From a virus (Duplodnaviria > Heunggongvirae > Uroviricota > Caudoviricetes), in the IMG/VR virus record IMGVR_UViG_2737471869_000024, positions 1 through 25,955 of that record: a DNA stretch of 25,955 nt; one strand, given 5' to 3'. Below the pieces are notes generated by a model that worked only from the letters and a program-made list of their open reading frames with translations, ran no database searches and was not told the origin of the DNA. The position numbers and the translations under genes were made by a program. Every line of letters starts with the position of its first letter. Positions within the stretch are counted from its first letter, which is position 1. Of this stretch, positions 1,873-23,749 are shown piece by piece.

Positions 1873-3675
1873 TTATATCACCATATATCTGAAGCTTGCT
1901 CCGCCTGCAGCTGGAGAACCTGACTGCGTAGCAAGGACAAGACTTCCGTTTGATTGACTTAAAACATATGCATTTGCTGCTGCAGCTGAAGCATTTGCTG
2001 GGTGAATCACAACTTGTGAATAAGGTGTTATATTTTCATCAACTAGTGTTGCTGAAGCTACACCACTCAATCCATTGAATGACTTCATCACCATCTTTTC
2101 AGTTGCAGAAAGAAGGACGTTTCTTATTGTAAATGTACCTCCTCCAGTTGGGTTTAGCTTTGGAATGAGTGCACTTGTTACGGTTGTAAGATTGCAATTT
2201 GTCAGGACAAGATTATTTTGATAACTGGTAACCTGTGCAATACCTGAATTAACAACAGTGGCATTATTCACGGTGTTATCTGTAGCACCATCCGATTGGT
2301 TAACACCACTTTGTCCTGCAGCATTAATATAAGCTGAAAGAACTCTGGTATTTGCCGATCCTGCCGCAAAGTTAATACCGTTTTGCCCGCAAGTATTAAC
2401 ATAAACACTCTCAATTGTGGATCCTGTTGTTGGCAGTCCAGCATGTCCAAAGTTAATACCGTGGAAAAATTGCGTGTTGGTAGATATCAACTTTCCTGCC
2501 ATGCTCCAGCGGCAATCAAAACCAATGCCTGATGCTGATGCAAGATCCACAGATGCATAAAGCAAACGGTTATAATCACCACTAAATTGAATACCAGAAT
2601 AAGCGTCATCACCAGAAGCGCCTTGTGCATGCCCTAGTGCCGCAATACTTCTATTAGTTTTGTAAATATAAAACGCTTCATGCCCCCACGATTCAATCCG
2701 ATCAACGATAAACTTTGAGTAATGGCACTGATAGAAAAACAGGCAACCAGAGCCGTCATTGCGGATTCCATCTGGTGATGGTGCACTTATAAAAGTGCGA
2801 GGGTAGTAATGGTCATGGACATAATGAGCGTAAAAATCTACGTTCTGACACTCTGTCAGATAGACAAGATGGGTTCCAATCTGTCCTGATTGTCCTGCTT
2901 TATTACCATCAATCTCATTAATGTGAATTATTAGACCAGAGTTATTACCTGCTGCGTAAAGTAATCTGTCAAAGTCGACACATCCAGACGGTAATTTGAG
3001 CTTCCCCTTTACAATCACTTTTTTTGCTGAAGAAAGGTTGAGATTTTTTGCAACGAGAGTAAACCCTTCGGGAACAATCAGCATACCTGTATCGTCAATC
3101 ATCTTCTGAGCTGAGATTGATGATTCAACTTCGCTCACAGCTCCCCAATCTGCAACTGTAAGATTCTCTGCATTTTTTTCATGCTGAGTCCTTTTTACTG
3201 CTCCGGTATAAGGTTGAATAACAGGTATCATTGCATCTCCGTCGCTGATACCTGCACCAATCAAATCTGCAACAGTGTGACCAGGACAAAGACCTATTAA
3301 TGAGGCTCCATCATCACCAGACAACTCCTGTCTTAGCTGATCTGGATCATACTTCAACACGTTTGGATAGTTGAACTGCTGTGTACCATAAGCATCGTAC
3401 ACAGCCATAGAATGGCCTTGCACGGTAACGAATTTGGCAATCTGTCCGTTATATACAGGGTAACCAGCAGCGTTAATGATGATTGGTTGCGAAACAGGAA
3501 CGTGAGAGCCGTCTTCATTCTCCACATAAACCTGAATCTGGTTTTCAGGATTTACCGGGTCAGTGTCAATTTTACCGATATAAATTTTGCCATTGGCTAC
3601 GGCTTTAAAAGAACGCGCCATAGTGAAGAGTTGCGAAGGCATGCTTACCACAACATTTGCGGTGATATCTGTCAT
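1873..3675 (-). CDS. Tailspike protein (P22 gp9-type N-terminal head-binding domain fused to a different receptor-binding/O-antigen-cleaving beta-helix domain)
   Basis: 600 aa. The first ~110 residues ([46 protein letters not shown]...NVLKYDPDQ) closely match the P22 tailspike head-binding domain as I recall it. The remainder is Gly/Ser/Asn/Thr-rich and beta-helix-like but does not resemble the P22 receptor domain. GGAG RBS upstream. Last gene of the virion module. Confidence 0.9.
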
Positions 3676-3744
3676 TTAATTTGCTCCAGATACAAGGAAT
3701 CGCCGCAGCATGGCTACGGTGAATTTTGGGCATAAAAAAAAACC

Positions 3745-3770
3745 AGCCGAAGCTGGGTCGTTGCGTTGGT
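3745..3770 (-). terminator. Rho-independent terminator downstream of ant
   Basis: Minus-strand hairpin CCAGC-TTCG-GCTGG followed by a run of nine T, immediately after the ant stop codon and upstream of the tailspike RBS. Confidence 0.6.
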
Positions 3771-3776
3771 TATCTG

Positions 3777-4712
3777 TCAGTAGTTATGTACTGAAGGAGG
3801 TAATTCTTTATTCTTAAGTCTCATCCATGCGGAAAGATTCGTTGGTCCGTCTGGCTCATTGATATCAACATCTCGTGTGTGGTTTATTAAAACGTCTCTC
3901 GCCATTCCGATAACATACGAGAATTCATGACCGTAGTCGTAGCATCTGCCGGAATAGTTCGATTGAATTTGTTTTAGCGCCGGATACAGTTCGCGGAATA
4001 ATGCCTGTGAGCGGTTGGCATAATCCCATAACCATACAAGGCTGTTTGCTTCTTTTGCAGAAAGCTCGTTGGTTCTCTTCTCTTGTTTTCCAATGAACTC
4101 ACCTTCAAGTGGAACTCGAGCTGCAAGTGATAGTGCTTCGGTAAACTGCTCATCACTGATTTCTTTGTACGAACATCCAAAATGGGATTTTAGTGACGAC
4201 CACATGGTGATCATCGCCTTAGCCTGTTTTTCTTTTGGCAGAGACTGACCGCGACTCATGACGAGTTGTTTAATGGCTTCCTGCTGTTCAGTGGTGATTT
4301 TACCCGGCAACGCCTTTTTAGCTTTGCGTGGGTTAAATACATGACCTTTAGTCCAGTAGTCATGCAGCACGCTAAAGCATTCTTCCTGGTACTGAATCAG
4401 TTTATCACGGATGTCAGCACGAACTTTCTCAGGGTTGATGCTGAACAGCCATCCATTTAACTTCTTCAGCGGGATGCATAAAAGCTTACGTAACTTGCCA
4501 TCAGCAGCAACCATAGAGATATCTCTACAGTTGAATTTGTCCTTCATTTTACGCAACTTAACAGATTGACCAGTCCAGTCGATACCAATGTTTTCCACAA
4601 TTTGACGCATCGCTACATAAGTCACTCCGGCAGCCATAGCGGTTAAAATCTGCTGACCATTGAAAGGCACGTAAGAGGTGTTCACTGCTTCTAAAATTGC
4701 TATACTATTCAT
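3777..4712 (-). CDS. ant: Antirepressor Ant (immI region)
   Basis: The protein from the internal ATG at 4712 ([30 protein letters not shown]...) matches the P22 Ant N-terminus as I recall it. GGAG-type RBS upstream of that ATG. The supplied ORF extends 22 codons further upstream, which is probably not translated. Confidence 0.9.
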
Positions 4713-4780
4713 GTTGGTTTTTCTCCACGAATTTACCGACAACCGAAGCCCTGACTGTTCCAGCAGTTGGGGCTTCAACT

Positions 4781-4942
4781 TTACGCGCCAATGCGCCCTT
4801 CCTTCTTAAAGCTGTCCATTACTCTCTGATAAATCTCAGAGTTAACAGACCGACCATTCTCTTCCGCCACCTTGCGTACCAAATCCAATACTTCTTTAGG
4901 CCACCGCAAATTGAACTGCGGCATTTTTCTTGCGCCTTGCAT
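4781..4942 (-). CDS. arc: Arc repressor (ribbon-helix-helix)
   Basis: The 53-aa product from the ATG at 4942 ([53 protein letters not shown]) is near-identical to P22 Arc. GGAG lies 7 nt upstream. Confidence 0.88.
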
Positions 4943-5035
4943 ATTCCACTCCATTCCATTAAATGATAGCACCGTACTACTATTGAAAGCGTACTACTAC
5001 CGTTCTAGCATGTCAACAAATAACAGGAGAGCGAC
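4943..5035. promoter_or_regulatory. Divergent Pant/Pmnt control region with an Oarc-like operator and tandem direct repeats
   Basis: The 21-mer ATGATAGCACCGTACTACTAT (4963..4983) shares both arms (ATGATAG ... CTACTAT) with the P22 arc operator as I recall it. A perfect TTGACA -35 hexamer lies on the minus strand (5011..5016), and a TTGAAA -35-like hexamer on the plus strand (4983..4988). A 10-bp direct repeat CGTACTACTA occurs at 4973..4982 and 4990..4999. Confidence 0.45.
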
Positions 5036-5275
5036 GTGGCTAGAAACGATCCACAATTTAACGTAAGAATGCCAAGTGAAATCAAGCAGCAGCTTACTCA
5101 CATTGCGGCAACAAACAGGCGCTCTATCAATGCTGAAATCATAGCTGCAATACAGCTATGGATTAAGATTAACAGAGAAAAGGTCATACCATCGACATCT
5201 CAAGATCTCACAAAAACAGAGAAGGAAGCAATGGATATTGCAATTAGCGTACTTAAGAAGATTCGAGGCCAATAA
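5036..5275 (+). CDS. mnt: Mnt-like ribbon-helix-helix repressor (divergent variant)
   Basis: 79 aa with a GTG start preceded by AGGAGA. The N-terminus MARNDPQFNVRMPSEIKQQL resembles P22 Mnt (MARDDPHFNFRMP...), but the DNA-contacting beta-strand (His to Gln) and the whole C-terminal half differ. It is divergent from arc, as in P22 immI. Confidence 0.8.
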   Translation: MARNDPQFNVRMPSEIKQQLTHIAATNRRSINAEIIAAIQLWIKINREKVIPSTSQDLTKTEKEAMDIAISVLKKIRGQ

Positions 5276-5622
5276 TGAGCAGTAAGGAGCAATACTTAAA
5301 AGTTACTTTTGAGTCTTTTAGTAATTACTTGACTTCATTCAAAAAAACTTATGTATGCCCAATATGCAGCAATACAAACTGGACTCTTTTAGCACCGGAG
5401 CATCTTAAAAAAGATGATGGTGTTGAAGTTATAGGCCCATCCATACCAGGTAAAAGCTTGCCTAATAATCCTGTTAATCAAGATACTTATAGCAACGATA
5501 GTCTTAACATGGTAGCCATGCAATGCACCACTTGCGGTTTCTTCCACTTTTTTAGTTTAAACAAAGTTAGTGAAAATATCTCTTCTGGAAAATTCGTAAA
5601 GGGTGATGGAGATAATGTTTGA
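5275..5622 (+). CDS. Hypothetical Cys4 zinc-ribbon protein (cargo gene, translationally coupled to mnt)
   Basis: 115 aa. Its ATG overlaps the mnt TAA (TAATG), with GAGG 7 nt upstream. Two CxxC pairs (C28/C31, C84/C87). The region looks AT-rich compared with the flanking structural genes. No recognisable family. Confidence 0.6.
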   Translation: MSSKEQYLKVTFESFSNYLTSFKKTYVCPICSNTNWTLLAPEHLKKDDGVEVIGPSIPGKSLPNNPVNQDTYSNDSLNMVAMQCTTCGFFHFFSLNKVSENISSGKFVKGDGDNV

Positions 5623-6115
5623 CCAACATGTTCACAATAAATCACCTAGTATTTATGGAGATGCTCAAAGCCAACATGAAAACCTTGACTTTGACAAATC
5701 GTTATGGAGTTCAATAGAAAACGCTAAATATTCAGAGTATTACAGACCAACTGGCAGAAATCCGTCAAAGGAACCACAAATATTTAGCCTACAAGAAGAG
5801 CAACACAAAGAAGAAGGTCGTGATACCGTGAAACGTTTAGAGCTATACGGGGTTGCAGTTGCTATCATTGGTTCTATCGTTGCCGCCACATGGACGATTC
5901 GAGGCACTATAGATGATAAAGTTGAATCATCACGACAAGAGCTAACAGGAAACATCCAAACCAGTAAGGCAGAGATAATGGCTACTATCCAAAACAACCA
6001 ATCAGTATTACAGTCAAGGATTGATAACACTGATCAAAAATTAGACTCGACAAACCAATCTCTTTATAAGGTATTGGCTATATTAGAGTCTCAAAAAGAC
6101 AAACGTTCTCAATAG
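5606..6115 (+). CDS. Hypothetical single-pass membrane protein with C-terminal coiled-coil-like domain (cargo gene)
   Basis: About 166-170 aa. Possible starts are GTG 5603, ATG 5606 and ATG 5615, all overlapping the end of the upstream ORF. One strongly hydrophobic segment (LELYGVAVAIIGSIVAATWTI) is flanked by K/R. The C-terminal ~70 aa are Q/S/T/N-rich with heptad-like spacing. Confidence 0.6.
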   Translation: MEIMFDQHVHNKSPSIYGDAQSQHENLDFDKSLWSSIENAKYSEYYRPTGRNPSKEPQIFSLQEEQHKEEGRDTVKRLELYGVAVAIIGSIVAATWTIRGTIDDKVESSRQELTGNIQTSKAEIMATIQNNQSVLQSRIDNTDQKLDSTNQSLYKVLAILESQKDKRSQ

Positions 6116-6136
6116 TTTCTTGATTTATTACCTATA

Positions 6137-6171
6137 GCTGCATGATTGATGTCTGTTGAAAATCATGCAGC
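6137..6171 (+). repeat. Perfect 11-bp inverted repeat (GCTGCATGATT ... AATCATGCAGC) with 13-nt spacer in the intergenic gap
   Basis: Read directly from the sequence; lies between the second and third cargo ORFs, 25 bp upstream of the AAGGAG RBS of the third. No clear U-tract follows. Confidence 0.4.
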
Positions 6172-6195
6172 ATTGATAAATCTAAGGAGATCGGC

Positions 6196-6516
6196 ATGTA
6201 CATATCGCTCTCTACCATTTTTTTCATCTGCTTAGCTATTTGGCTTTTAAGAATATGGCAGGATTGCTCTGTCAGCCATGCTGCTGCGGTGAGAAATAAA
6301 AACGCCCTCATAAAAGAAGCTGAAAACGTTGTCTTATCAATGGATCACCTTTCATGGACCGAGATGACTACAGGGCAACAAGAGGTTTATGAGTGTGCGA
6401 TTGAGCGGTTAAGGCTGCTTAAATCGTACAAAAAGAACCACGCTCCCGACTCATTCCCATTCCTGAAAGAATGGCCGAGATGGTATGACCCGAAAAAAGC
6501 AACCATCAACCGCTAA
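6196..6516 (+). CDS. Hypothetical small membrane-anchored protein (cargo gene)
   Basis: 106 aa with a strong RBS (AAGGAG, 7 nt spacing). N-terminal hydrophobic segment MYISLSTIFFICLAIWLLRIW, either a signal anchor or a signal peptide (possible AxA-like site SHA-AAV). The stop codon lies 8 bp from the convergent gp16 stop. Confidence 0.6.
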   Translation: MYISLSTIFFICLAIWLLRIWQDCSVSHAAAVRNKNALIKEAENVVLSMDHLSWTEMTTGQQEVYECAIERLRLLKSYKKNHAPDSFPFLKEWPRWYDPKKATINR

Positions 6517-6524
6517 CCAACTTT

Positions 6525-8531
6525 TTACTGCTGGGCTTTCTCACTTGAAGCCTGAATTAGAGGTGTAAGAGTTTCAGATACCCGTCTGATCGCTCTATCA
6601 TAAGCAGTACTTCCTTTTGGCGTGTTTGCTAACTTTAGTAATGCGTTCCTCATCGCGCGTGACTCATAGCCCCTGCCAGCCATACCGATACCAGCTCCTA
6701 CTGCCGCAACTTTTGCAAACATTGGATTTGTAACAGACGCAAGAGCTGTTATCAGCGCTGCTGGACCAGCTACCATTTGCCCTGTTAGTGGGCTTGCGGC
6801 AGCAGTAGCTGCCTGTCTAGTGGAATCAAGATATTTCATTATCCCATCAAGCTGTTTCCCATGCTCTCCTCTGAAGAACGTCTCAGCCTGCTTCCGATTC
6901 CTTTTCATTTCATTAATAAACTTCTCAACGCTAAGCTTTCCTGAATCGCTTGTCGCCTTATCCATTGCACGCTGAACAAGTGCTGCTCTAGCATTTTGAC
7001 GCCCACTATCATCAAGCAATCGATAAAGTTGCGCCCTTTCCGCTGGGCTTTGGCTGAATACTAGTTTAGTGACATCTTCTGGCGTTGTTTTACCACTCTG
7101 AATAGCTTTTTGGACACGTGTATTGCTCATCATGTCGTTGAACTTTGCCCAAGAACGATCAACACGCGACATGTTTTGCGCTTCCTTCGCACCTAGTTTT
7201 GCGCCAACCGCTTTTTTCATGTCTGTTGTGTATGCGTTATAAACAGACTGCGCAGCTTTCTCCAGCGTATCTCTATCGACCTCGTCAGGTGCTGCCATAA
7301 AGCGCTTACGTAAGTTTGTACGGTTTTCTCTAGCTAATTGCAGGTTATTTGGACCGCTGGTGATGTCATTTCTAAACTGTTGAAGGACAGAAACAGCTGA
7401 GCGGTCTTGCGATACTCCTGGGCGAGTTAACTTGGAAATCTGCTCATCAATTGCTTTCACTGTTCCAGTGATGTCAACAGGAGTATCCCCCATCAAACTG
7501 ATGATCCTGTCGTACCGCTTGCCAGCAGCCTGAATAAATTGCTGCTGACCACGAGTAGCTGATTGGTAAAGTTGTGCGTCAGATATTCCACCAACATTAT
7601 CGCTAAATGTTCTAACTAAATCTTCCCTGGCCTTTTGCTGTGCATTTCTTATCCCACCTGTTCCGGCTATTGGGATTCGCTCAGCCATAGCTCGTGCTTG
7701 CTTACCAATATTTGTTCCCGGTTCCACAAGATCTGTTGTCATCAGTGGCAAGTTGTTCTGCTTGGCAAAGTCAATCTGAGCTTGTTTTTCAGGAGCAATC
7801 TTACCCATAGCAGAACGAGACACTGCGCTTGCGGTGTTTTCTACACCCTTCAGTACCCCACCAAGACCAGCAGAAATTGCAGTTTGAACTGGATTAACAT
7901 TCTCACCGCCAGCGATCTTAGTGGCACCCTGTAAAGCTAAATCAGTAGCGCCTGATTTTAGTGTTGCACCTACAACAGACGCAGCTCTACCTGCTGGAGT
8001 GAATGCAAGAGCATTTGCCAAGAATGACGTTATATCCTGCGGTGACAAACCAGGCTTGTTAAGTGCATATTCCCCTGAAGGAAGGGTGACTATGGAATTT
8101 CCCTTCTCATCCTTCCGGATTTTCCCGCCAATACTTTGCAGTATTTTCTCCTGTGAAGCGTCGGAACCAAATAGCTGCCCCAATCCAGCACGCAGCGCAT
8201 CAGTGCTTAAGCTATTAAGCTCTGGAGCAGACCCAACATTTTGCAGTCTCTCCATTTCTGGTGTCATTCGGCTTTCACCGGTAACGGCATCGCGCATTGC
8301 AGCACCTAAAACAGCCCCTTGCTCAGCAGAGCGATCTAGTCCTTCCTTCTGCTGAGTGGCAAGCTGTGCATATCCTGATGCAAGTGAGTTGTCTGCTGGC
8401 GATTGCTGAACACCTTGTTGTGTTGGTGCTGACTGACCAGCAAAATACTCATCAATGGCGGCGCCAATATCTTCGGTGCTCGTACCATCAGGAAAGGTAA
8501 ATGTCTTACCGTTTGCAGTAACTTTCATCAT
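6525..8531 (-). CDS. Ejection (internal/E) protein, P22 gp16 homolog
   Basis: 668 aa, last of the three ejection genes in conserved P22 order (7-20-16). Start overlaps the upstream gene stop. Confidence 0.8.
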
Positions 8532-9943
8532 TCCACCGTAAATTGAATGCCTGATTTTGAGGTATATGATCCAACCTGATTCCGTGGTTCTCCTGAAGGT
8601 GTCGAATCTTGTGCTGGCGCTGCGTCAGTATTCATTGACATATACCGCTTAACGGCACTCCCCAATGATTCACCTTTTTTAACATCCAACCCCAATATCT
8701 GACCGCCATTACGCGATTGTCCAGGGTTGCCATTCGCGCTCATCCACTCAGCTTTAAACTCATTAAACTGCGCGTTTCGTCGCTCAAGGTTTGCCATTGC
8801 ATCAAGCCATCTTGCGACCGTCTCAGGGTTATCCATGTCAGTTGGCGCACCCTGACGAACGATCTCAACGTCTTTATCCGTTGCTGGGCCGGGAGGTAGG
8901 AATTTAAGGACCTGACTGTTAACAAGGGCATTTTGGCGAATGCGCAAATCACGCAATGTTGTATCGCTTCCGGTAAGTTTTGCGAACATGTTCTGTGCGT
9001 TACCGAACAAACCTGTCGTTGGTTTTTCTGCTCTGAACTGTTGAGCAAGCGCACTCATAGAATTGGCTGAGTTTGATGATGCTGTAGCATTGTTTACAGC
9101 CGTCTCGATGCCTTTTTCCATGTTTACTGACAGCTTAGGTGCTTCGCTAATCAACTGCTGAGCCTTTTCCTGCGCTTGCTGCATCTTAAACCCGAACTCT
9201 TGCTGATCCAGAGCCAAGCGTTGTGCTGCGATATTGTGCCCAGTCATTGCTGACTGATAGGAAAGGTTTTGCCCTCTCGCCTGAAGTGCCTCGCCAGCCT
9301 GATTGCTGCGGATTGTCTCTGCCAGTCTGCCTCGGTCAATCTCACGACCAGCCATCTTGTCCTGAACAGCAAACGCCTTTTCTGGTCCAAGCGCACCGAG
9401 AGACATAGTAGTCAGCATGTGTGATAGCTGCTCTGGATTCTGGATACCTGTCTGAATCATCCAGTCAGCATTCGCCCCCACGCGATTTAACCTGTCCTTG
9501 TTGTCAGTAATGAATTTACTGTAGGCTTCCGGTCCCTGGGAAAGAGCGACGTTAGCCCTCATGGCTAAATCGCCCATATCGTTGCGTTGCTGCTCATTAA
9601 GACCGGAAAACGCCTGTTGTGCCTGTGCAACAAACGCTGGATTTTCCTGGGCAAACTTAAATAGTCCAGATGGATCACCAGAAGCCCATGCATCAGCGTG
9701 AACCTTATTGAACGCACTAATAGCTTTCTGTTGCTGTTCCTGATTGTAAATATCAGCAACTCCAGCCAGACCACGTAACGCGGTCAGACCAATGTTATTT
9801 GCACCTGAGCGAGCCAGTTCATTGTTTTCGCGGATCAGACCAAGCGTTGCGTTAATGTCGCTTGCCTTTGGCGCATTCTCATTTTGCGTACCGATGCCAG
9901 CCAGAAAACCACCAGAATTAATACCCTGTTGCCACGTAGCCAT
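8528..9943 (-). CDS. Ejection protein, P22 gp20 homolog
   Basis: 471 aa, the size I recall for P22 gp20. Synteny between gp7 and gp16. Confidence 0.8.
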
Positions 9944-21673: not shown

Positions 21674-22146
21674 ACCTCAATCTCTCTGACCGTTCCGCCA
21701 GCTTCTTTGAATTTTGCAATCAGGTTGTCAGCCTTATGCTCGAACTGACCATAACCAGCGCCCGGCAGTGAAGCCCAGATATTGCTGCAACGGTCGATTG
21801 CCTGACGAATATCACCGCGATCAATCATCGGTAAAGCGCCACGCTCTTTAATCTGCTGCAATGCCACAGCGTCCTGGCTTTTCGGAGAGAAATCTTTCAG
21901 GCCAAGCTGCTTACGGTAGGCATCCCACCAACGGGAAAGAAGCTGGTAACGTCCGGCTGCTGTTGATTTGAGTTTGGGGTTTAGCATGACAAGTTTGCGA
22001 GGGTGATCGGAGTAATCAGTGAATAGCTCTCCGCCTACAATGACGTCATAACCATGATTTCTGGTTTTCTGTCGTCCGTTATCAGTTCCCTCTGACCACG
22101 CCAGCATATCGAGGAACGCCTTACGTTGATTATTGATTTCCACCAT
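21670..22146 (-). CDS. R: Endolysin R (lytic transglycosylase)
   Basis: 158 aa, [39 protein letters not shown]... essentially lambda R. Confidence 0.95.
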
Positions 22147-22453
22147 CTTCTACTCCGGCTTTTTTAGCAGCGAAGCGTTTGATAAGCGAACCAATCGAGT
22201 CAGTACCGATGTAGCCGATAAACACGCTCGTTATATAAGCGAGATTGCTACTTAGTCCGGCGAAGTCGAGAAGGTCACGAATGAACCAGGCGATAATGGC
22301 GCACATCGTTGCGTCGATTACTGTTTTTGTAAACGCACCGCCATTATATCTGCCGCGAAGGTACGCCATTGCAAACGCAAGGATTGCCCCGATGCCTTGT
22401 TCCTTTGCCGCGAGAATGGCGGCTAACAGGTCATGTTTTTCTGGCATCTTCAT
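22130..22453 (-). CDS. S: Holin/antiholin S (dual start Met1-Lys2-Met3)
   Basis: 107 aa, [62 protein letters not shown]... essentially lambda S. The upstream CCCC-TTATT-GGGG hairpin is in the position of the lambda sdi structure. Confidence 0.95.
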
Positions 22454-22695: not shown

Positions 22696-22771
22696 TGGTG
22701 CTGGTTAACGGACTTGAACCGCTACCCATTCGCTTACAAGGCGACTGCTCTACCATTGGAGCTAAACCAGC
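22696..22771 (-). tRNA. tRNA-Thr(UGU)-like gene
   Basis: Manual fold of the 76-nt minus-strand sequence GCTGGTTTAGCTCCAATGGTAGAGCAGTCGCCTTGTAAGCGAATGGGTAGCGGTTCAAGTCCGTTAACCAGCACCA. Perfect 7-bp acceptor stem, 4-bp D stem with GG in the loop, anticodon loop CTTGTAA, T-loop TTCAAGT and an encoded CCA. Confidence 0.55.
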
Positions 22772-22776
22772 ATATT

Positions 22777-22851
22777 TGGCGGGACAGCGTGGACTCGAAC
22801 CACGATAAGAAGGTTAACAGCCTTCCGTAATGACCTTTATACGACTGACCC
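22777..22851 (-). tRNA. tRNA-Asn(GUU)-like gene (imperfect)
   Basis: 75-nt minus-strand sequence with T-arm CGTGG-TTCGAGT-CCACG, anticodon arm GAAGG-CTGTTAA-CCTTC and a CCA end, but one mismatch in the acceptor stem and a weak D stem. Could be a degenerate tRNA. Confidence 0.4.
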
Positions 22852-23125: not shown

Positions 23126-23749
23126 CTAACGTGTGACCGCATTCAAAATGTTGTCTGCAATTGACTCTTCCTTGTGGCATTGCACCACCAGAGCGTCATA
23201 CAGCGGCTTAACAGTGCGTGACCAGGTGGGTTGGGTAAGGTTTGGGATTAGCATCGTTACAGCGCGATATGCGGCGCTTGCTGGCATCCTGGAATAGCCG
23301 ACACCTTTGCATCTTCCGCATTCTTTCTCAACAACTCTCCCCCACTGCTCTGTTTTTGCTATATCAACCGCACGGCCTGTACCGTGACAATCTCTGCATC
23401 TTGCGCCCGGCGTCGCGGCACTACGGCAATAATCCGCATAAGCGAATGTTGCGAGCACTTGCAGTACCTTTGCCTTAGTATTTCCTTCAAGCTTTGCAAC
23501 GCCACGGTATTTCCCCGATACCTTGTGTGCAAATTGCATCAGATAGTTGATAGCCTTTTGTTTGTCATTCTGGCTGAGTTCGTGCTTACCACAGAATGCA
23601 GCCATTCCGAATCCGGCTTGTGATTGCGCCATCCCCATAGCAGCCATCACATCAGTACCGGAAAGAGAGTCAGAAGCCGTGGCCCGTGGTGAGTCGCTCA
23701 TCATCGGGCTTTTTGGTGAATGAAATTTGGCTACGCTTTCGAGTCTCAT
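23126..23749 (-). CDS. Q: Late-gene antiterminator Q
   Basis: 207 aa, [60 protein letters not shown]..., matching lambda Q as I recall it, including the Cys-rich zinc-binding region (CRDCHGTGR...CGRCKG). Confidence 0.95.

Follow-up and report, generated by a model that had tools for sequence, protein, structure and literature searches.

A candidate zinc-ribbon gene and its overlapping partner gene form a mobile cassette downstream of mnt in a P22-like Escherichia coli prophage

Few phage genes are expressed in every lysogenic cell; those transcribed with the maintenance repressor of a prophage belong to them, and the tested examples of this class (rexAB, sieA and bstA) protect the host against other phages. 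In a 25,955-nucleotide stretch of DNA from a tailed phage of the Caudoviricetes (IMG/VR record IMGVR_UViG_2737471869_000024, positions 1 to 25,955; the whole stretch is referred to below as the window), a small gene (5275-5622, + strand) starts on the last base of the gene for a Mnt-type repressor. This position raises the question of what its product does there, and with which of its neighbours it works. The original prediction saw in it a zinc-binding module translationally coupled to the immunity repressor. We found that the invariant and universal coupling of this gene is to the gene that follows it (5615-6115, +), not to mnt, and that the two genes constitute a discrete mobile accessory cassette (moron) of prophages, which has the genomic hallmarks of the class named above.

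The four-cysteine protein and its partner

The start codon of the first gene of the pair (ATG, 5275-5277) shares one base with the stop codon of mnt (TAA, 5273-5275) in the arrangement TAATG, and a GAGG motif resembling a Shine-Dalgarno sequence is present within the 3' end of mnt (5265-5268, +), six nucleotides before the ATG. Both features, read from the sequence, agree with the original prediction, and so do two properties of the 115 amino acid product. Its sole cysteines (C28, C31, C84 and C87) form two CxxC pairs, C31 being separated from C84 by 52 residues, and the protein has no transmembrane segment, the best 19-residue Kyte-Doolittle mean being 1.09, as compared with 1.92 obtained by the same measure for the product of the next gene. 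The open reading frame (ORF) is annotated identically by GenBank (phage N7, AYR02207) and by RefSeq/PGAP (WP_024203682), and its product matched PHROG 4293, a family of unknown function (4.7e-31 over 1-112).

A word-indexed protein search with the single sequence returned only its own cluster, and an exhaustive HMMER search was needed to assemble the family. Scanning 1.84 billion representatives yielded 16 matches, approximately 14 of which were genuine relatives or fragments; two were discarded as repeat proteins. The members of this rare family come from Escherichia, Providencia, Morganella, Klebsiella and Pantoea. In the alignments, which comprised 13 and later 17 members, F12, L19, W36, L38, P58 and M82 were near-invariant, whereas the four cysteines, G88 and F93 were invariant across 17 homologues that are 23-34% identical to the window protein. 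Because such invariance at this level of identity goes beyond chance, the ORF can be regarded as a real gene.

The product is very probably a zinc-binding ribbon, since the four cysteines are invariant and strands follow both CxxC motifs in the AlphaFold2 (AF2) model. In this model, computed from the 13-sequence alignment, a helix (residues 12-21) is followed by one strand past the first CxxC motif (36-39), by strands flanking the second motif (79-84 and 90-94) and by a C-terminal helix (95-104), with a poorly ordered loop of about 40 residues separating the two motifs. The predicted local distance difference test (pLDDT) score was 68.6 overall and 84-91 around the second knuckle. Fold searches returned only ribbons of the TFIIS, NrdR, L44e and MqsA types, all of them non-significant (best E 0.0095, TM-score below 0.35), and a sequence-profile search of the PDB found nothing significant (best E 0.016). 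The zinc-finger and zinc-ribbon families of Pfam all scored far below their gathering thresholds (best 16.3 bits, cut-off 27), no zinc-ribbon family of NCBIfam was matched, and neither a helix-turn-helix (HTH) or other DNA-binding domain nor a significant match to a nucleic-acid-binding family was detected. The zinc module of the original prediction is well supported as a structural class, but no curated family stands behind it, and the protein falls into no described family.

What had been missed before is that the stop codon of the zinc-ribbon gene (TGA, 5620-5622) overlaps the next gene, whose ATG is at 5615. The overlap is 8 nucleotides in the window (ATGTTTGA). In all 12 loci compared, which represent at least nine lineages, a homologous partner of 148-186 amino acids is encoded next to the zinc-ribbon gene on its 3' side, and the stop of the zinc-ribbon gene overlaps the start of the partner gene; the overlap was 1-23 nucleotides in 11 measured loci and, as calculated from the coordinates, 47 nucleotides in the locus L025. 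The same relationship was observed from the partner's side: the search with this protein found 17 clusters in Providencia, Morganella, Pantoea, Klebsiella and E. coli, and a four-cysteine zinc-ribbon gene was located directly upstream in every context looked up. Moreover, the pairwise identities of the zinc-ribbon proteins and of the partners co-vary (r = 0.81, 66 pairs). Neither the zinc-ribbon gene by itself nor its combination with mnt is the functional unit; the zinc-ribbon and partner genes together are.

The partner encoded in the window (166 amino acids, WP_024222613) matched PHROG 24865, also a family of unknown function (2.8e-116 over 5-170). Proteins of this family consist of a variable N-terminal region of approximately 70-90 residues, a single predicted membrane helix (at about 77-95 in the window protein; Kyte-Doolittle values of 1.9-2.45 in the homologues) and a coiled-coil-like C-terminal half, which tolerates large changes in length. 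An invariant tryptophan lies after the helix or at its end, within a conserved TW(T/S)xSNxI motif. When the lysines and arginines in the 15 residues flanking the helix were summed over 17 homologues, the totals were 42 for the N side and 23 for the C side, and the N-side count was the higher one in each of the 17 proteins. By the positive-inside heuristic, this excess suggests that the N-terminus is cytoplasmic and the coiled coil periplasmic. A Pfam scan of eight partner homologues gave weak matches of coiled-coil type (MG280, COG6_N, XhlA and DUF2959), which were treated as compositional.

Limits, locations and surroundings of the cassette

The G+C content of the cassette is 37%, as compared with 47% for the window, and in all loci it was 4-10 points below that of the flanks. 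E. coli prophages lacking the cassette become homologous to the window only from approximately position 6178 on, which marks a mosaic joint. Canonical intrinsic terminators were found 3' of the partner gene in 10 other loci; in the window, their position, just before the joint, is occupied by a perfect 11-bp hairpin with a 13-nucleotide loop (6137-6171, +; z = -2.4), 22 nucleotides past the partner stop. No obvious promoter belonging to the cassette itself was seen. The aberrant base composition, the joint, the terminators in 10 loci, and the presence or absence of the pair among sister phages define it as a moron, and all contexts seen were prophages.

The genes preceding the pair differ between lineages. 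The order mnt, zinc-ribbon gene, partner gene was found in two P22-like lineages, represented by the window and by the IMG/VR locus L014, in which the start of the zinc-ribbon gene overlaps the mnt stop as ATGA. In lineages of Providencia, Morganella and E. coli the pair follows a gene for a cI-type repressor (HTH plus S24 peptidase) and is followed by N where this gene was called, in Klebsiella it is located 3' of a gene for an HTH-only repressor divergent from ydaS/ydaT, and in three lineages it lies at the prophage edge, where its neighbours are ssrA, a tRNA cluster past the integrase gene, or host genes. Where the pair is linked to a repressor gene, it is directly downstream and in the same direction. 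At the cI-linked loci the zinc-ribbon gene has an AAGGAG of its own and is separated from the repressor gene by an intergenic gap, so translational coupling to the repressor is limited to the Mnt-linked versions. The coupling to Mnt that was proposed originally holds in so far as the genes are placed for co-production in the window and in L014, but it does not define the system, as other homologues are linked to cI or to no repressor at all. The reverse idea, that this type of Mnt always travels with the pair, was rejected, since the Mnt of phage Emek (77% identical) lacks the zinc-ribbon gene and is followed by other small genes and a DUF4065 pair.

Two of the contexts showed further peculiarities. 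In L014, no arc or ant was found in the 8.8 kb fetched around the pair, and its Mnt has no nearby ant to repress. Where arc and ant would be expected, between the tailspike gene and mnt, there is only a tiny hydrophobic ORF (about 2770-2868, -; MRWNRRNAWLAVVAFCLAFWVMIILI), which might encode a small membrane peptide. Four Providencia prophages (L002, L008, L009 and L010) contain a 44 amino acid ORF (5785/5824-5958, +) between the gene for the cI-type repressor and the zinc-ribbon gene; it is conserved there and absent from the other lineages.

The window itself is a P22-like E. coli prophage that shares 99.7% identity with Escherichia phage N7 (Lederbergvirus) and phage HZ41 over positions 4700-6600. 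In a tblastn search of 50,697 phage records the pair was present in these two phages only (absent from 50,695). A 1.6-kb segment carrying the cassette was found at an identity of at least 99% inside prophages in 41 of the 5,426 complete E. coli genomes, which were of human, bovine, veal, ground-beef and pig origin. No matches were obtained by tblastn against plasmids or in two single-protein scans of viral contigs, and the E. coli cI-linked variant (L021) was not found in complete E. coli genomes by megablast.

The site between the tailspike/immI genes and gene 16, which the cassette occupies in the window, behaves as a cargo hotspot. It contains mnt, orf59 and sieA in P22, and Panacea/DUF4065 gene pairs resembling toxin-antitoxin (TA) systems are located in the same slot in an E. 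coli prophage (L011, 3201-3644) and in phage Emek (L023, 4118-4991). E. coli prophages without the cassette (L011 and L012) keep ORF106 next to gene 16, and a Panacea-domain pair or a different repressor replaces the cassette. The slot between genes 16 and 9 is known to hold sieA in P22-like phages (PMC10883804). Likewise, the cI-N region is a recognised cargo hotspot (PMC8585504), in which rexAB shares, and bstA is presumed to share, the repressor's promoter (PMC8585504, PMC11077077).

ORF106 (6196-6516, +; 106 amino acids, WP_000275950, PHROG 10450) was one of two downstream membrane proteins named in the original prediction as possible interaction partners. The other one, the 166 amino acid protein, does belong with the zinc-ribbon gene, but ORF106, which has an N-terminal membrane helix, is separated from the pair by the joint (about 6178) and is also present where the pair is absent. 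It represents a conserved gene of its own in the sieA neighbourhood, and its product is not similar to SieA. The possibility that ORF115 (the zinc-ribbon gene), ORF166 (the partner gene) and ORF106 represent diverged orf59 or SieA proteins was tested, and the comparisons were negative. At the position of ORF106, L014 encodes an unrelated 99 amino acid protein (4358-4657, +), which has an N-terminal membrane helix and a coiled-coil-like tail, and whose gene adjoins the gene 16 homologue.

The gene order around the cassette (1873-9943) is that of the canonical P22 immI region. The tailspike gene (1873-3675), ant (3777-4778) and arc (4781-4972) are on the - strand. The sar antisense RNA (4713-4780, +; Rfam RF00262, 90.6 bits, full length) is antisense to the arc-ant junction and confirms that the P22-type immI circuit is complete. 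Between arc and mnt a consensus scan detected a promoter-like site (4983-5011, +; TTGAAA and TAGCAT separated by 17 nucleotides), which, by analogy with the immI layout of P22, may be Pmnt. The first gene of this putative transcription unit is mnt (5036-5275, +; GTG start), encoding a ribbon-helix-helix (RHH) repressor of 79 amino acids. The protein is a true Mnt homologue, because it matches the Pfam family Arc (4.8e-13) and its residues 1-40 are 48% identical to P22 Mnt. The GenBank annotation of phage N7 uses an internal ATG at 5069 (207 nucleotides) as the mnt start; the GTG at 5036 (240 nucleotides, preceded by AGGAG) is backed by the alignment with P22 Mnt and by the PGAP annotation. Beyond the cassette and ORF106, the convergent ejection-protein genes 16 (6525-8531) and 20 extend over 6525-9943 (-).

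Two other parts of the window were also inspected. The ORF adjoining the tailspike gene (1-1842, +) encodes an AT3 acyltransferase with a fused SGNH domain (Pfam, 1.2e-29 and 2.8e-26). It is probably an O-antigen acetyltransferase gene and as such would serve serotype conversion; the corresponding position in phage N7 is taken by other genes. Two phage-borne genes, for tRNA-Thr(TGT) and tRNA-Asn(GTT) (22696-22851, -), are flanked by the gene for the Q antiterminator (23126-23749) and that for the holin (22130-22453).

Possible functions of the pair

P22 Mnt is made in the lysogen from Pmnt and keeps ant off. As the cassette is carried on the promoter of a maintenance repressor, in the window presumably as a Pmnt unit composed of mnt, the zinc-ribbon gene, the partner gene and the hairpin, the pair would be expected to be made in the lysogen. 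Translation would pass from mnt through the TAATG to the zinc-ribbon gene and from there through the second overlap to the partner gene, and because of this passage the two proteins would be produced in roughly matched amounts. The partner is envisaged as a single-pass inner-membrane effector with a cytoplasmic N-terminus and a periplasmic coiled coil, and the zinc-ribbon protein as a cytoplasmic sensor or regulator bound to it. Put together, the two proteins may form a lysogen-expressed superinfection-exclusion or abortive-infection module, which would shield the lysogen from superinfecting phages with a division of labour as in lambda RexA/RexB and from the slot in which P22 has sieA. Judged by analogy, we estimate the probability of this reading at roughly 45 per cent; it is favoured by the position of the pair, by the logic of its expression and by the combination of a soluble and a predicted membrane protein.

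Several points weigh against an exclusion module. No matches to the zinc-ribbon protein, the partner or ORF106 were found in PADLOC-DB 2.0 at E ≤ 1, neither the members of the pair nor ORF106 reached the curated cut-offs of Pfam or NCBIfam, no convincing match to the zinc-ribbon protein was found among solved and viral structures, and the pair has no enzymatic or pore-forming signature. The AF2 model is of only moderate confidence, as its overall pLDDT indicates, the topology of the partner is derived from a crude charge count, and the hairpin of the window lacks a U-run, so that its function as a terminator is uncertain here. Known entry blockers such as SieA are single proteins. The Rex proteins are unrelated to the pair in size and fold, and the analogy with them is positional and architectural only. 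Moreover, prophage cargo expressed with a repressor can also act in switch control, as RexA and 434 Hex do, in addiction modules or in traits of the host envelope.

The possibility of addiction deserves consideration because the two small genes overlap with the soluble one first, as in type II TA operons. In such a module the partner would be toxic to the envelope, the coupled zinc-ribbon protein would neutralise it, the prophage would be stabilised, and the system might double as abortive infection. Zinc-ribbon antitoxins exist (MqsA), the top fold matches include ribbons of the MqsA and NrdR types, none of them significant, and the same slot holds the Panacea/DUF4065 pairs in related prophages and in Emek. 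However, no similarity to toxin or antitoxin families was found in the Pfam, PADLOC and NCBIfam scans, autoregulation would call for an HTH or another DNA-binding domain, which the zinc-ribbon protein lacks, the size (150-190 amino acids) and long coiled coil of the partner are unlike those of small hydrophobic membrane toxins, and the cassette relies on a foreign repressor promoter instead of an autoregulated one; we consider a TA module unlikely. The location of the pair could also point to an entry blocker that replaces SieA, with the periplasmic coiled coil disturbing the gp7/gp20/gp16 conduit of P22-like phages and the zinc-ribbon protein acting as an assembly or stability factor. The pair fills exactly the mnt-to-gene-16 slot of P22 orf59 and sieA (PMC10883804), the window contains neither a sieA homologue nor the SieA motif, and the predicted topology would place about 70 coiled-coil residues in the periplasm. 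Such a role is nevertheless doubtful, as most family members are in the cI-N slot of lambdoid prophages, away from ejection-protein genes, injection blockers described so far act as single proteins, and the conserved cytoplasmic zinc protein would be left unexplained.

Closest to the original prediction is a switch regulator, in which the zinc-ribbon protein and a membrane sensor would tune repressor or antirepressor activity, or induction. The tight physical and translational linkage to several kinds of repressor gene would fit this role, and precedents are available, as RexA/RexB assist the transition from lysogeny to lysis (bioRxiv 10.1101/2021.04.19.439022; PMC11077077) and 434 Hex is synthesised from the mRNA of the repressor (PMC3564112). 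In contrast, the repressors accompanying the pair are mutually unrelated (RHH Mnt, HTH-S24 cI and short HTH proteins), L014 has Mnt but neither arc nor ant in the region fetched, in three lineages the pair is at a prophage edge, remote from any repressor, the closely related Emek Mnt works without it, and the zinc-ribbon protein matched no nucleic-acid-binding family significantly. We regard a switch regulator as improbable; the zinc-ribbon protein may have the regulatory or sensing role proposed originally, but would then act as the soluble half of a module of two proteins rather than as an accessory of the Mnt/Arc/Ant circuit. The pair could, finally, be a lysogenic-conversion factor unrelated to phages, acting on the envelope, on stress or on host interaction, or it could be cargo without selectable function here. 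That the window has another conversion gene (the AT3-SGNH ORF) and that the 41 E. coli genomes carrying the cassette come from varied sources would be compatible with this explanation, but the strict co-conservation of the two genes and the invariant residues across five genera at about 30% identity point to a selected, specific function, and every context seen is a prophage; its probability appears to be low.

The preferred reading is thus a module for superinfection exclusion or abortive infection. If it is correct, the pair adds a novel protein architecture and might influence the typing of carrier strains by phages or their treatment with phages. The two genes are small (together approximately 280 codons), and clinically relevant E. 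coli, Providencia, Morganella, Klebsiella and Pantoea carry them. A further proposal, made tentatively and at somewhat less than even odds, is that the homologues constitute a previously unrecognised two-component anti-phage family, consisting of a cytoplasmic zinc-ribbon sensor and a single-pass effector with a periplasmic coiled coil, which moves between the sieA slot of P22-like and the rexAB slot of lambdoid phages. Such a family would provide a small tractable model for the triggering of a membrane effector from the cytoplasm. In the literature searched, nothing relevant was found on the pair's accessions, PHROG identifiers or architecture. Should the function not be defence, the pair would still illustrate clearly how a mobile cassette makes use of the promoters of different repressors.

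Comparison with known systems

The likeness to lambda RexA/RexB lies in the arrangement of two genes with the repressor gene on the maintenance promoter (for our pair presumed), one for a soluble cytoplasmic and one for an inner-membrane protein (in our case predicted), and in the cI-N slot, which most homologues of the pair occupy as well (PMC11077077, PMC8585504); the rex genes are transcribed with cI from PRM (PMC11077077). The proteins themselves differ. RexA (31 kDa) binds DNA, has two domains and lacks a zinc ribbon, and RexB has four membrane helices and no coiled coil, whereas the partner has one helix. Furthermore, the carrier operon in the window is that of mnt, not of cI as for RexAB, and the cI-N position is held by the Providencia, Morganella and E. 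coli homologues, not by the window. No Rex or Rex-like description was found among the PADLOC, Pfam, NCBIfam and PHROG matches, the presence of a Rex model in these libraries not having been verified.

With P22 SieA the pair shares the location downstream of mnt, between genes 16 and 9 and in the direction of mnt (PMC10883804), and SieA, as predicted for the partner, is an inner-membrane protein expressed from the prophage. However, SieA is a single protein of about 164 amino acids, and the pair also occurs away from ejection-protein genes. BLASTP comparison of the window proteins with P22 SieA gave E = 4.3 or no alignment, and the SieA motif FxRYPxEAxxFNK was absent from all six frames of the window. 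BstA, the abortive-infection protein of prophage BTP1, resembles the pair in being borne by a prophage, encoded 3' of the repressor gene, provided with its own terminator and mobile in prophages of Gram-negative bacteria (PMC8585504); bstA is located downstream of cI and is presumed to share its promoter (PMC8585504). BstA differs in that one large, DNA-associated protein of the cytoplasm makes up the system, together with an aba self-immunity element; it is not homologous to the pair, and a membrane component is lacking.

The resemblance to 434 Hex is that a small protein is made, or for our pair would be made, off the repressor mRNA with overlapping reading frames (PMC3564112). Hex acts on the RecA-mediated cleavage of its own repressor, whereas the pair accompanies unrelated repressors or none, and its zinc-ribbon protein is always found with the predicted membrane protein. 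The MqsR/MqsA and Panacea TA pairs are similar in having two small overlapping genes and a zinc-ribbon member, and in occupying the same hotspot in sister prophages, but the pair lacks an HTH domain and an RNase-type toxin, and neither family was matched significantly. Taken together, these comparisons suggest, by analogy, that the pair is repressor-operon prophage cargo of the Rex, SieA and BstA type, but built from unrelated proteins in a new architecture.

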